Shown: positions 21,601-24,600 of the stretch, piece by piece
Layout: every line of letters starts with the position of its first letter
Position numbering within the stretch: the stretch's first letter is position 1
DNA from: Myxococcota bacterium
Lineage (GTDB): Bacteria > Myxococcota_A > UBA9042 > PHBI01 > JAWLBL01
Reading direction: 5' to 3'
DNA: 64,000 nt
Assembly (NCBI GenBank): GCA_041687695.1
Contig: JAWLBL010000001.1
Coordinates: 195,361-259,360, forward strand
Made by a program: the position numbers

Positions 21601-24600
21601 GGTCGCTGGCCCAGTGCCGGTCGGCCACCATGCGCAAGAGCCCCGTCGTGGTGCCCAGCGCCAGGGCGCCGCCGCAGGCGAGCGCGTCGCCCCAGCCGCC
21701 GCCGTACAGCGGCAGCTCGCTGTGGTGGGCGCAGATGAGCCCGGCGCCCGCCATCGCCATGGCGGTGTGGCCGCTGTAGAAGCTGTTGTACATGGCGTCG
21801 GTGCCGCAGAGGTTGTCGTAGTCGGGGTCCTCGCGGCAGGCCTGCGCCATCGGCCGCTCGCGCGCGGACAGCCGGTGCGCCAGCTGGCTCAGCAGCCCGA
21901 CGGCCGCCAGCGTCTCGAGATCGATCATGCCCAGCTGCCAGGCGACGTCCGGCTCGCCCCGGATGAGCCAGGTGACCACGATGGCGTCGACGACGATGGG
22001 GTAGAACTGGCCGATGTGCCAGCCGAAGTCGCTGACGCGGTTGGCGAGCCGCCGGTTGCGCTCGGTCTCGCCCACGAAGAGGTCGCGGACGGGGTCGTCG
22101 AACAGGATGGGGCCGCTCCAGCTGGGCTCGTCGACCTTGGGCCAGAACCAGCTGATGGCCAGGTTGCCGGCGACCAGGCCGCCGGTGATGGCGTAGTCCA
22201 GGGTGTCGAAGCGGCGCCACTCGGGCTTCCAGACGAGCTTGGTCGATCTAGGCGCTTGGGGGGCAGGCTCGGCGCGTGGCTCGGGGGCCTCGGCGGCCGG
22301 AGCGGCGAGATCGGGCGTCTGGCCGCGGACGCCCGGGGCGACGCCCCCGACGCACACGAGGGCGAAGCACGTCGCGGCCATCAGGCCACGCCGCGGGAGC
22401 GAGATCGGGAGCATGGGGTAAGCCTGCCTTGGTCAGGGGCCGGGGCGGGGTCGCCCGGGCGAGCCCGGCGAGCGCCGCGCCCCTGACCGGTCGGACGAGG
22501 ACCTACCGCAGAGCGGGGTTCAGCGTGTAGGTCCCGTAGAGGGTGGCGGTGGCGATCACGTGGCCGCTGATGGCGGCGAGGGCCTGGCGCCCGTCGAACT
22601 GGTCGGGCAGATCGAGGCGCTCGACGTCGAGGGCGTACAGGGTGAAGTGGTACAGGTGGACGCGTTCGTCGTTCCAAGGCGGGCACGGCCCGTCGTAGCC
22701 GTGGTAGTTGCCGTCCATGTCGGCGTCGCCCTTGAACCAGTTGGTGTAGTCGTTCAGGCCCTGCCGGGCGTTGCCCTGGACGTACACGTCCTGCTTGCCG
22801 CGGGTCGTCACGCCGCGCGCGTAGGCGCCCTCCTCGATGCCGGTGAAGGTCGGCGGGAGATCGACCAGCACCCAGTGGAAGAACTCGGTGCGCGGCATGA
22901 TCTTGGGGATCTTGGTGCCCTCGACGTTCACCTGCGAGCCGTCGGTGGGGACCTCCGAGTCGTGACAGACCAGCGCCAGCGACCGCGCGCCCGTGGGCAC
23001 GTCCGACCAGTCCAGGGCCGGGTTGAGGTTCTCTCCGAACGTCACGTGCGTCTGGGGATCGGGGACGCAGAACGCGAACCGGTCGGGGAGGCGCGACCCG
23101 GCCTGAAAGCTCGGGGAGGTCAGCTTCATCTCGGCTCCTTGCAGGGGGAGGGACGGCGACGACGGCGAGGGGCGCCGGCGGGCGGGCGAGCCGCCGGATG
23201 GGGGCGGCCCGGACGAGCGGGTGGCGGAGTGTTTCCCCAAGGGTAACTGCGGCCGAGGGCGGGGTGTCAAGGAGGCGGCCGTCGTCCGCGGACCGGACCG
23301 GTCAGCGGTGGCGGTAGACCCTTCCCGAGTCCGCTGGCCGATTCCGTGGCCCGGTTCCGTGGCTTCGTCGGCGCACCGAGCCCGGTGCCCTGCGAACGGC
23401 CCCCCGGCTCATACACCACTTGACAGGACACTACTCCGCCGTGAGTGGTGAAGCCGGGACCGGGCCCCCACGCACATAGTCCAAGCACCACCTTGGCTAC
23501 TGGGTACCTCTGGGCCTCGCCAGAAGTGGCGAAGCCCCGAGGATCACACCTACCGCTTTGGGTGCATCAGCCGCCACGTCATCGCCTGCACGCGGTCGAG
23601 CAGCGCCAGCGCTTCATCCCCGCGCGCCTTCGGCACCGCGCCCGTCGCGACGAGCAGCCGCATCGCGGCGGACGCCTCGCGACACGAGCCGTAGGCGATC
23701 CTGTAGTGCTGAACCCGGTCACGCCCCGCCCGGCCAGCGCCCTCGGCCAGGTTCAACGGCGTACTTGCGACCGCCCGCACCGCCTGCTCGGCGACGCACC
23801 GCAGTTGCGGACTCACGCCCCGCGTCGATGCCACGACCGCCACCGCCGCCTCGACCGCCAGCGATTCAGCCTGGAGTGAGCTGCCGTTCCGAACCACACC
23901 TTCGTCCTGCATGGGAGCCATCCTTTCGTGTCAGTGGATGCGCCCCCACCCCGCAGGGGTCCCCGGCGGCGTCAAGGGTCGCCGAAGGCGACCGGCGCGC
24001 AGCGCCGGCTTGCCCTTTACGTCGCCGGGGACCACTGCGACCCTCCCGCATCCTCTGACGCGATGGATGGCTCCCTCAGCGACGAGGCCTGTGCCCAGCC
24101 ACCTCAGCGCCCGCCCCACCGCGCAGCGAGCTGCGCGGGCCCTCGAGCACGAGCAAGCTCGTGCAGTCCGGACGCCGCGTCTCGATGACGGCGATGGCCA
24201 CGGCCAAGGCCACGGCCACGGTCTACGGCCACGGTCCACGGCGACGGCCTCGGCCACGGTCTACGGCCTCGGCCTCGGCCTCGGTCTACGGCCTCGGCGA
24301 CGGCCACGGTCTTACGGCCTCGGCGACGGCCACGGCGACGGCCACGGTCCACGGCGACGGCCACGGCCACGGTCTACGGCCTCGGCGACGGCCACGGACT
24401 ACGGCCACGGTCTACGGCCACGGCCTCGGCCACGGCCACGGCCGCGGCCCTGATAGCGAATCTGTGCAGCCGAGCCCCTGGACCATGAGGAAGCCTGGAC
24501 CGCCAGCATCCACGCTGCGAGGCGCTTGGTCCCCAACCCCGTTTACCAATCGGGTCTACCGCCGTCCGCGTGGCGAGCGGCGGCCGGACGCTGGACGCGA

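Follow-up and report, generated by a model that had tools for sequence, protein, structure and literature searches.

A repeated Myxococcota cassette with a start-covering hairpin, a PF05635 gene and transposon-like ends

The window analyzed here, a 64,000-nt stretch of contig C1 of a Myxococcota bacterium genome (G000), contains a small gene of the PF05635 family whose ribosome-binding site lies in one arm of a very large hairpin. The locus raises the question of why a gene family known from 23S rRNA intervening sequences occurs outside rRNA, in several copies, behind a structure that covers its own start. Positions refer to the window unless a contig name precedes them.

Copies, ends and insertion scars

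The PF05635-gene cassette is a repeated unit copied approximately eight times in this genome, as four intact copies, two decayed copies, and two without hairpin and gene. The studied copy (c1, C1:218797-219920) and another intact one lying in this window (c2, C1:251403-252295, equal to window 56043-56935, with a feature span up to 56946) are both on the minus strand. The parts of c2 are an array (56698-56946), a hairpin (56419-56585), and an ORF (56059-56430), all on the minus strand. The other intact copies, c3 (C11:154841-155837) and c4 (C8:256204-257426), are on the plus strand. The decayed copies c5 and c6 include one at C10:98390-99255, which has lost the inner 98 nt of its hairpin and contains a 2-nt frameshift, and one at C8:86938-87740 (minus strand), where ATG is changed to CTG and the ORF is truncated. 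The two derivatives without hairpin and ORF (c7 and c8) are found at C5:268078-268495 and C14:67940-68336. A preliminary description of this locus had listed the four intact copies and the decayed copy on C10, all of which were recovered, and lacked the second decayed copy and both derivatives. The unit of about 1 kb that it proposed is real, with the full carrier extending to about 1.27 kb (24558-23289).

In c1 the whole carrier element occupies 23289..24558 on the minus strand, ~1270 bp from inverted repeat to inverted repeat, with TAGACCCGATTGGT at its left end and GACCGGTCCGGTCCG at its right end. The terminal inverted repeats are 14-15 nt long, and in c1, c4, c5 and c6 the copy consensus is TAGACCTGATTGGT, compared with CAGACCTGATCGGT as the reverse complement of the other end. 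The ends seen in c1 are also present in c4, c5 and c6, and partially in c7 and c8. The left-end module (24450..24558, minus strand, including the inverted repeat) is common to C8:256204, C8:87740, C5:268495, and C10:98390, and the right-end module (23289..23384, minus strand, likewise including the inverted repeat) to C14:67940-68035, C8:86938-87026, and C8:257330-257426. The carrier is flanked by a target-site duplication, with CGGACGGCGG as the left copy (24559..24568, minus strand) and CGGACGACGG as the right copy (23279..23288, minus strand, read from the sequence), matching at nine of ten positions. Copy c4 has CTGCCGCTGG at both sides (10/10), and c5 and c6 each match at 8/10; duplications of ~10 bp are thus observed in all four copies with both ends. 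No target duplication was recognized for c7. We conclude from the inverted repeats and target duplications that the carrier moved like a non-autonomous transposon, and the case for mobility, earlier drawn from copy number only, now includes these scars.

No transposase ORF is present inside the carrier. The end sequence has no other site in the genome at up to three mismatches, and hence no partner transposase with these ends was found, in an assembly where IS copies collapse at contig ends. The end modules are absent from c2, on either side, and from c3, that is, from two of the four intact copies, and the inverted-repeat route therefore does not explain every copy. MITEs and mobile insertion cassettes are non-autonomous elements with IS-type ends, some of which carry passenger genes (e.g., MIC231 of Bacillus cereus). 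The carrier is like these in its terminal inverted repeats, ~10-bp duplications, passenger gene, and missing internal transposase, and in occurring as several copies together with internally deleted derivatives. It is unlike them in having no same-ended partner IS in the assembly, in the two intact copies without ends, and in a cargo that is itself a conserved cassette, found with other flanks in other genomes.

All cassette copies are set among protein-gene flanks, and c1 lies in non-coding DNA adjoining long ORFs taken as genes (putative, from ORF reading). Copy c1 alone contains the isolated end of an unrelated IS-like repeat (23384..23437, minus strand), which shares 85-89% identity with the terminal 54-60 nt ending contigs C37, C49, C60, and C9. 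This segment was considered as an rRNA flank and rejected, being the end of the IS-like repeat. PADLOC gave no defence-family match. Four DNA runs yielded only short contigs (31-924 nt) that cover portions of ORF, hairpin, and array, for which paralogues or relatives are possible sources. One of these contigs has 13 listed differences, 11 of them at third codon positions. A single "opposite strands" joint at the hairpin could equally well reflect a fold-back during assembly or a variant.

The hairpin at the start site

The large hairpin (23905..24091, minus strand; core helix 24075-23913) has a predicted folding energy of -141.6 kcal/mol (z -7.20), and none of 200 shuffles is as stable. Reading of the sequence and fold places the Shine-Dalgarno sequence (AAGGA) and the first ATG in the 3' arm, while the likelier start, the second ATG at 23912, is in a 3-nt bulge at the helix foot. 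Across the four intact copies, RNAalifold finds 70 pairs (-118.2 kcal/mol), four of them compensated. The forked tip, or apical module (23956..24035, minus strand), consists of CGTAAAGGG, two small hairpins, and CCCTTGACG, and is exactly the part absent from the decayed c5 and c6. No Rfam family matches at its gathering score, the best being MIR8622 (23.4 bits vs 197) and sX6 (10.9 vs 40). The preliminary description had reported a large stable hairpin outside Rfam, with 76 pairs, -127 kcal/mol and four compensated pairs, and these results confirm it.

A GC-rich hairpin, predicted from the fold, directly follows the stop codon (23507..23542, minus strand) and is kept in c1, c3, c4, and c5. It lacks a T run, and a terminator scan found 0 sites. 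A sigma-70 promoter scan likewise found 0 sites, and no promoter was located. The sequence TTGAC in the apical 3' arm resembles a -35 box; by eye, no -10 box is present at the right spacing in G000, G344, G239 or G261.

Sequence comparison shows that, in close and middle-distance relatives, the hairpin is homologous and constrained in sequence and keeps a conserved apex. The shared apex, CGTCAAGGG...CCCTTGACG, allows a single covariance model (R1) to find hairpins in untrained genomes (G344, G008, G151, G239, G379, and G249), and the apical motif together with a covariance-model match is common to at least ten genomes. In this genome R1 scores 87.2 bits at c1, the remaining three intact copies reach 86-90 bits (89.6 bits for c2, at C1:251824-251903), and the next best match has 24 bits; these four are its only strong matches, and no solo hairpin was detected with it. 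The seven R1 matches in G344 are exactly the seven gene copies of that genome. Across genomes, 83% of cells in the apical helix are paired and 15 of 23 pairs are changed on both sides, a degree of pairing reached by 0/500 shuffles, with slid controls at 27-50% paired. Whole-hairpin MAFFT alignments across genomes (A1 and A3) are not structure-aware, with RNAalifold returning only 6 pairs on A1, and pairing statistics were instead derived from within-genome alignments and a hand-set helix on alignment A4. Within G008, 14 of 63 pairs are compensated.

Within genomes, the hairpin is conserved beyond synonymous sites. Divergence is 0.000 and 0.025 in the outer arms of the copies studied here, 0.007 in the 3' arm in G008 and 0.065 in G344, compared with 0.136, 0.102, and 0.197, respectively, at third codon positions. 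Hairpin sequences had been described as unrelated between genomes, with the fold kept and not the sequence. The first statement is contradicted by the motif and model shared among at least ten genomes; the second is unsupported in view of the conserved apex and of a hairpin more conserved than synonymous sites.

The layout recurs in multiple copies in other Myxococcota, as first proposed. Upstream folds with z<=-3 were found at 14 of 21 homologue starts (12/19 genomes). Among controls, such folds occur at 4 of 70 gene starts of this genome and in 5 of 33 windows. These z-scores replaced the measure "Shine-Dalgarno window paired >=100 nt upstream", which was dropped because 31 of the 70 control genes also have it. 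In the homologue folds, CCUCC of the 5' arm pairs with GGAGG located 5-8 nt before the start, and the hairpin has its foot at the Shine-Dalgarno sequence also where the apical motif is missing (L036, L037, and L040).

With moderate confidence, we explain the locus as a transposon-like carrier of ~1.27 kb whose cargo is a conserved Myxococcota cassette with a start-locking hairpin. The carrier is non-autonomous, with inverted-repeat ends and ~10-bp target duplications, and the cargo comprises, in order, a short-period array, a 165-187-nt hairpin, and a PF05635 gene of the family of ORF-bearing 23S rRNA intervening sequences, here outside rRNA. Since the Shine-Dalgarno sequence and first ATG are in the 3' arm, any transcript containing both arms would lock the ribosome-binding site in a duplex of ~70 bp, leaving the gene silent in read-through transcripts. 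Such silence is usual for mobile-element genes. Translation would then require either a transcript beginning inside the hairpin or a double-strand RNase that cuts away the 5' arm, by analogy with RNase III acting on rRNA intervening-sequence stems; an RNase III gene is present in this genome. Start-site sequestration and RNase III-activated leaders are familiar from the transposase mRNAs of IS10 and IS50 and from Escherichia coli adhE. The proposed arrangement is analogous to these in a ribosome-binding site paired with an upstream complement and in read-through transcripts that would be silent or in need of processing. It is unlike them in its far longer hairpin (~70 pairs), conserved apex, and non-transposase gene.

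Points that count against this explanation are the missing strand signature, the existence of gene-less hairpins, the lack of a located promoter, the two intact copies without end modules, and the absence of a partner transposase with these ends from the assembly; a search for RNA runs covering the locus also found none. Twenty-two hairpins contain 1142 Watson-Crick pairs, 51 G-U pairs and 32 A-C 1x1 mismatches, which provides no sense-strand RNA signature, and in most of them the antisense strand folds equally well or better. Such pairing is compatible with action as either RNA or DNA. A possible, though distinctly less probable, explanation is that it is mainly a DNA element, a palindrome extruded as a single-strand hairpin or cruciform and serving as a cis site for copying or insertion. 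In that case the PF05635 protein would be either its partner in trans or a passenger, and coverage of the ribosome-binding site would be a side effect. The gene-less hairpins would be non-autonomous derivatives, comparable to the MITEs of IS elements and the REPINs of RAYTs. The near-perfect palindromes without strand bias are consistent with this, as are gene-less hairpins of the same type with differing flanks in G261 (at least four dispersed copies), G056 (two), G054 (one), and G050 (one). The apical module was lost exactly, with symmetric break points, in c5 and c6, as expected of extrusion in DNA, and the protein is under purifying selection in every intact copy, as in transposases. The genome also has 11 matches to Y1_Tnp, a hairpin-recognizing HUH transposase, ten of them over the cut-off, and the apex (CGTC-AAGGG...CCCTT-GACG) bears a resemblance, and only that, to the CGTC-tagged REP class (PMC3733652), for which the authors, in the sections cited, report no dedicated transposase.

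A pure DNA site, however, has no reason to keep its foot at the Shine-Dalgarno sequence when the apical motif is missing. Furthermore, inverted repeats and duplications in G000 and G050 belong to larger units with the hairpin as cargo; the gene-less hairpin of G050 lies in an insertion of ~255 bp, which interrupts a serine recombinase gene and is itself equipped with inverted repeats and a 6-bp duplication. The lack of solo hairpins in G000 also argues against a DNA element, as does PF05635 itself, which is without a known nuclease or recombinase fold and whose profile matches only the 2GSC and 2RLD bundles. REP/BIME and REPIN-RAYT systems offer a related comparison. Small GC-rich palindromes grouped into mosaics are a shared feature, and REP dimers nested in longer palindromes are described in PMC3733652; the cassette of G344 is bracketed by GTAG-tagged REPs, and G000 encodes Y1 transposases. 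Unlike REPs, the large hairpin is 5-8 times longer, is partnered by a four-helix-bundle gene and not a RAYT, and occurs in 4-14 copies per genome, not hundreds.

The PF05635 gene and its upstream repeats

The PF05635/TIGR02436 four-helix-bundle gene (23550..23921, minus strand) encodes 123 aa from the first ATG. The second ATG, at 23912 and 8 nt after AAGGA, is the likely start and gives the 120 aa originally described. Matches to Pfam PF05635 (E 7.6e-12; 45.8 bits vs a cut-off of 33.8) and TIGR02436 (48.7 bits vs 24) are well above threshold, and the part order of array, two small hairpins, large hairpin, and PF05635 gene stands as originally given. When 25 homologues are combined into a profile, it hits two solved four-helix bundles, PDB 2GSC (E 1.1e-18) and 2RLD (E 4.4e-8). 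The 2GSC entry was deposited with five chains and is described as five four-helix bundles in a reference quoted in the cited part of PMC10053308. Residues R46, S50, N54, and E57 show little or no variation across the 25 homologues, in accordance with the family motif GxxRxxxSxxxNxxE given in PMC3936711. Of 401 Myxococcota genomes, 97 encode homologues at E<=1e-5, which makes them commoner than the 20 of 201 first counted, and proteins of relatives are 35-61% identical. The protein gave no tblastn match to plasmids at E<=1e-3, and no description of a hairpin and PF05635 cassette was found in the literature searched. dN/dS is 0.136 among the copies in this genome (3 pairs) and 0.098 (37 pairs) and 0.304 (15 pairs) in other sets, and these values (0.10-0.30) indicate purifying selection on the gene in every intact copy. 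Because every intact copy keeps the gene under such selection, the protein is probably needed by the cassette itself.

The hexamer array (GGCCGT, GGCCGA, AGACCGT) extends over 24188..24449 on the minus strand (262 nt; TRF period 6, ~42 copies). Cassette arrays span 105-309 nt, short of the ~350 nt originally stated. A REP-like hairpin doublet (GCACGAGC..GCTCGTGC and CCGCGCAGC..GCTGCGCGG) is located at 24119..24164 (minus strand). Both are generic repeats of this genome and not cassette-specific. The genome contains 48 period-6/7/12 arrays of at least 100 nt; 42 are GGCCGT-oriented and 13 of these are followed by the doublet, with cassette copies making up only six of the 13. The doublet is dispersed over dozens of sites, including eight tandem copies on C58. 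Arrays lie on both sides of the gene in 11 of 17 relatives, clearly inverted in only four of those 11, and no array is found downstream of the gene in this genome. For G000, coding of a low-complexity protein by the array was rejected because 7-nt units interrupt all reading frames; the rejection does not extend to one G008 copy.

TRAP acts on the trp leader in Bacillus and provides a model for another, rather unlikely, reading, in which array and hairpin form an autoregulatory leader. A ring-shaped protein would bind its own 5' leader, at the repeats and/or the apical junction, and this putative binding would set whether the start-occluding hairpin forms. Gene and hairpin are strictly paired in G344 (7/7), and a short-period array is found upstream of the homologue in 17 of 21 related genomes versus 30 of 379 control genes. 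A leader would also be consistent with a hairpin sequence kept beyond synonymous sites, with conservation of RxxxSxxxNxxE within the family motif, and with the five bundles of the structural relative 2GSC (in part from PMC10053308). However, the array unit differs among genomes (GGCCGT, CCGGAC, GATCCCGAGCCC, CACGGA, GGAGAC, CCTCAG, and others) although the proteins are 35-61% identical, gene-less arrays of this kind are common in this genome, and hairpins without a gene exist.

Relation to intervening sequences and significance

Among known systems, the start-locked cassette can be compared with ORF-bearing 23S intervening sequences (Leptospira; Coxiella burnetii S23p). In the Coxiella 23S intervening sequence, the stem contains the Shine-Dalgarno region of the S23p ORF, and RNase III removes that region (PMC4990558). 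The cassette shares with such elements its protein family (PF05635/S23p) and the association of the ORF with a long stem that includes the ribosome-binding region. Also common to both are short tandem repeats immediately before the start, which are heptamers in Coxiella, and a sporadic, multi-copy, horizontally spread distribution (PMC4990558). Unlike these elements, the cassette is outside rRNA genes, and its ORF is neither enclosed by a terminal stem nor in a loop, the hairpin being wholly 5' of the ORF. The hairpin also has a conserved multi-branched apex, and the unit here rides in an inverted-repeat carrier. A link to rRNA had been considered uncheckable. The 23S rRNA is indeed not assembled in G000, and the check rests on three complete relatives (G006, G264, and G181), all with multi-copy homologues; their 23S genes are 2877-3018 nt and therefore too short for an ORF-bearing insert, and no rRNA link was found in these three.

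A further idea, also unlikely, is that hairpin and PF05635 protein are a self-spreading pair, in which the protein would recognize its own CGTC-tagged multi-branched palindrome and promote its copying to new sites, with gene-less hairpins as non-autonomous offspring. If true, the same partnership would underlie ORF-bearing 23S rRNA intervening sequences and possibly CGTC-class REPs; it would be the first PF05635 function outside diversity-generating retroelements (DGRs), and a new kind of mobility factor without a recognizable nuclease or recombinase fold. That the cassette is a DGR remnant with an orphan Avd gene is close to refuted. In its favour, DGR reverse transcriptases are accompanied by PF05635 more often than by any other family, and PF05635 is Avd-like in structure, sharing a related four-helix-bundle fold and small size with the accessory protein bAvd (PDB 4DWL; PMC10053308). 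Against it, RVT_1 has 0 matches in this 99.27%-complete genome, the repeats noted in the cassette, where no search was dedicated to a template/variable pair, are hexamer arrays and hairpins/REPs and not such a pair, and the profile matches 2GSC and 2RLD with no Avd entry at E<=0.01. The preliminary description had likewise set DGRs aside for want of RVT_1, and its central proposal, a mobile-looking cassette coupling a start-occluding hairpin to a PF05635 gene, is supported.

To our knowledge, PF05635 is among the commonest small families of unknown function, known since 1993 only as an "rRNA intervening-sequence ORF" and later as an Avd relative, and we know of no explanation for how intervening sequences spread. 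The locus described here makes that question testable, with a gene outside rRNA tied to a sequence-constrained, start-covering hairpin, selection for its retention in every intact copy, recognizable insertion scars, and gene-less hairpins in other genomes. A covariance model is now available as well for this RNA- or DNA-level motif, which Rfam lacks. A unit of gene and hairpin that recurs in related bacteria points to a little-described selfish cassette.

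Organization of the cassette and its carrier

The copy under study (c1, window 23289-24558) is a minus-strand feature of eight parts. In 5' to 3' order these are a left-end module (24558-24450), a 262-nt repeat array (units GGCCGT, GGCCGA and AGACCGT; 24449-24188), two small GC-rich hairpins (the doublet, 24164-24119), a large hairpin (24091-23905), an ORF (23921 or 23912 to 23550), a GC hairpin 3' of the stop codon (23542-23507), 54 nt from an unrelated repeat (23437-23384) and a right-end module (23384-23289), all on the minus strand. BLAST against the genome contigs identified the 54-nt fragment as a solo end piece of an IS-like repeat, full copies of which lie at the start of contigs C37, C49 and C60 and at the end of C9. 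At its terminus this repeat reads GTCCTGTCAAGTGG, which resembles the ends (TGTCCTRT) of a hairpin-bearing insert in another Myxococcota genome, G050.

BLAST against the 63 contigs of the genome under study (G000), followed by alignment, identified four intact copies: c1, c2 (window 56043-56946), c3 (C11) and c4 (C8). Two further copies are decayed, with the ORF disrupted by a 2-nt frameshift in c5 (C10), and truncated and carrying CTG in place of ATG in c6 (C8); from both hairpins the inner 98 nt are missing exactly. Derivatives c7 (C5) and c8 (C14) are without hairpin and ORF. The array of c7 is joined to the final 20 nt of the ORF, and c8 equals c4 minus the segment from just past the doublet to just short of the right module; from these junctions, both are read as internal deletions.

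TAGACCTGATTGGT opens copies c1, c4, c5 and c6, and its inverted complement (reverse complement CAGACCTGATCGGT) closes them. On either side of these four copies are direct repeats of ~10 bp, identical in c4 (CTGCCGCTGG / CTGCCGCTGG, 10/10), matching at 9/10 positions in c1 (CGGACGGCGG / CGGACGACGG) and at 8/10 in both c5 and c6. The end sequence was found nowhere else in G000 at up to 3 mismatches. Given these inverted-repeat ends and flanking repeats, with no further end sites, the carrier behaves as a non-autonomous element, its transposase presumably absent from or hidden in the assembly. The end modules are missing from c2 and c3, so the inverted-repeat route fails to cover every copy. Nearly all contig ends of G000 belong to a few repeat families (one with more than 20 members, several with 4-6), and many of the 11 Y1_Tnp (IS200/IS605-type) matches lie within 1 kb of contig ends.

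In G000, 48 arrays with a period of 6, 7 or 12 are 100 nt or longer; together they make up 10.5 kb. The same doublet follows 13 of the 42 GGCCGT-oriented arrays, and cassette copies account for only 6 of these 13 sites. When cassette DNA was compared with relatives, only the array matched, in 27 of 41 genomes (G000 counted among them). Array and doublet are thus generic intergenic repeats of the lineage, and by their distribution the parts of the cassette evidently differ in history. As RNA, (GGCCGU)n is self-complementary (GGCC with GGCC, GU with UG), and each of the 42 arrays could fold back; (GGCCGT)n DNA in that register has two G-T mismatches per unit.

The PF05635 gene and its start-occluding hairpin

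The ORF matches PF05635 (E 7.6e-12, over the cut-off) and TIGR02436, "four helix bundle protein". A 25-homologue profile matches the four-helix-bundle structures 2GSC (E 1.1e-18) and 2RLD (E 4.4e-8), with no match to an Avd entry at E<=0.01. AAGGA lies 8 nt 5' of the second ATG (23912), and a start there yields the 120-aa product given in the preliminary description. Paralogue dN/dS is 0.136 in G000 (3 pairs), 0.098 in a second genome, G008 (37 pairs), and 0.304 in a third, G344 (15 pairs), ratios which indicate a functional gene. Two more G008 copies are frameshifted yet retain the hairpin.

A 221-nt stretch containing the hairpin folds at -141.6 kcal/mol (z -7.2). The four intact copies have 70 pairs in common, 4 of them compensated. 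The 3' arm GGAUGGCUCCC (23923-23913) includes the Shine-Dalgarno core and the first ATG, and in the predicted fold the second ATG sits in a 3-nt bulge between the main helix and three more pairs. Divergence of the outer arms among G000 copies is 0.000 and 0.025, compared with 0.136 at ORF third codon positions, 0.107 in the doublet and 0.313 in the 3' flank; the apical part diverges by 0.109, with compensation. The 3' arm of G008 diverges by 0.007 versus 0.102 at third positions, and the G344 hairpin by 0.065 versus 0.197. That the fold and not the sequence is kept, as previously proposed, is not borne out, since a hairpin less diverged than third positions in three genomes argues for constraint on sequence and not on fold alone. 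In genome G261 (loci L014, L058 and L059) the G-rich loop of the 3' arm, GGAGGCGCATGAAC, provides a second Shine-Dalgarno together with an ATG that shares the reading frame of the annotated start; in G000 the homologous stretch, GGGGGCGCATCC, is without an ATG.

Recurrence and homology in other Myxococcota

Protein matches at E<=1e-5 occur in 97 of 401 Myxococcota genomes, many of them multi-copy. Many of the hits are found at the ends of contigs, where repeats are expected to fall. G008 belongs to the same order as G000, at ~60% identity; all 12 copies examined consist of array, ~175-nt hairpin, ORF, small hairpin and array, the large hairpin terminating in GGAGG 7 nt ahead of the ATG in each. 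One or two homologue starts per genome (21 starts, 19 genomes) were folded, and 14 of the 21 (12 of 19 genomes) reached z<=-3; among controls, 5 of 33 windows from those loci and 4 of 70 ordinary gene starts of G000 did so. Arrays with a period of 5, 6, 7, 12 or 18 were found no more than 500 nt upstream in 17 of 21 genomes, versus 30 of 379 G000 control genes. Recurrence of the layout, as first described, is upheld by these counts. The array unit differs in almost every genome; arrays flank both sides in 11 of the 17 (4 clearly inverted, 6 direct, 1 ambiguous).

The G344 cassettes (L016, L051-L056; part of L056 is masked with N) have GTAG-tagged REPs (GGGGCGAAT...ATTCGCCCC) on both sides. Upstream they also have an array of G-rich CAGGGA units, and downstream an inverted array that is rich in C. 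In L045 (G008:C23:74000-77700) the downstream array is in frame, on the minus strand (1552-2), with a long repeat protein rich in Cys (TETD..., then repeats with many CxxC) and lacking a signal peptide in that frame; this cassette may have inserted into, or beside, a low-complexity linker of a secreted protein gene.

The hairpins of G000, G008, G261, G151, G344, G325, G040/G379, G239, G254 and G249 have three features in common: an apex in which 1-3 small GC hairpins lie between CGTCAAGGG and, after them, CCCTTGACG; an internal loop rich in G; and a foot of CCUCC paired with GGAGG. When nine sequences were aligned over the apical helix, 83% of cells were paired and 15 of 23 pairs had changed on both sides; none of 500 shuffles was as good, and slid controls paired at 27-50%. 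Within G008, 14 of 63 pairs are compensated. A covariance model made from the nine-sequence alignment (R1) scores 86-90 bits at the four intact G000 copies and at most 24 bits elsewhere in that genome, hits exactly the 7 gene copies in G344, and detects hairpins outside its training set. On alignment and model evidence the hairpins of these genomes are homologous, contrary to the earlier view that their sequences are unrelated. Homologues below ~40% identity have start-occluding hairpins without the common apex, and no Rfam match to the hairpin was found. Separately, 33 nt of the forked tip (window ~23976-24008) match at least 8 sites in the complete genome G006 at 91% identity (e.g., C1:7875718-7875750), which may be a REP of G006.

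Nature of the element

The Coxiella intervening sequence is described as having a stem that includes the Shine-Dalgarno region of the S23p ORF and is cleaved by RNase III, with heptamer repeats ahead of the start (PMC4990558). RNase III is present in G000. We favor, at about an even chance, a conserved intervening-sequence-type cassette outside rRNA, riding on a non-autonomous transposon, whose hairpin would hold the ribosome-binding site shut in every transcript with both arms. No 23S rRNA was found in the G000 assembly; identity as an rRNA insert was rejected on the 23S genes of complete G006, G264 and G181, all with multi-copy homologues, which measure 2877-3018 nt.

Half as probable is a role at the DNA level, with the hairpin as a mobility site and the protein its partner. 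The pairs of 22 hairpins (1142 Watson-Crick, 51 G-U and 32 A-C single mismatches) and an antisense strand that folds as well as the sense strand give no sign of selection on one RNA strand, and correction of palindromes in DNA would explain the compensated changes equally well. Gene-less hairpins of this type exist too, two in G056, one in G054, and others in G261 and G050. Those of G261 form a second family of at least four dispersed copies (L086-L089; C31, C314, C233, C279), a ~225-nt repeat made up of a leader in which one stretch (GTGTCGGNNTCGAACCCGG) resembles a tRNA T arm, a G run, and a hairpin with the apical motif; no tRNA gene was found in them by ARAGORN. In G050 the hairpin, of the G000 apical type, is the core of a ~255-bp palindromic insert (L079:1402-1656, C50; again in L082) whose ends are inverted over 8 nt and which is accompanied by a 6-bp duplication (CCTTCA). 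This insert interrupts a large serine recombinase past position 64 of the Recombinase domain, separating that domain from the zinc ribbon. Against a DNA-level site, however, the foot stays on the Shine-Dalgarno even where the apex is lost, and in G000 and G050 the scars of movement are those of larger units in which the hairpin is cargo.

A leader to which the ring protein would bind and so regulate its own gene is rather improbable. The PF05635 family adjoins reverse transcriptases of DGRs (PMC10053308), but a DGR remnant is very improbable given that no RVT_1 match was found in G000, in agreement with the preliminary description.

Family settings described in the literature include rRNA inserts of CPR bacteria and insertion in cas operons. 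Searches outside subscription journals, by family names and identifiers and for Myxococcota palindromic repeats, found no published description of the hairpin-gene cassette. What the present analysis adds are the separate start-occluding hairpin with its conserved apex, the inverted-repeat carrier and the gene-less hairpin derivatives.
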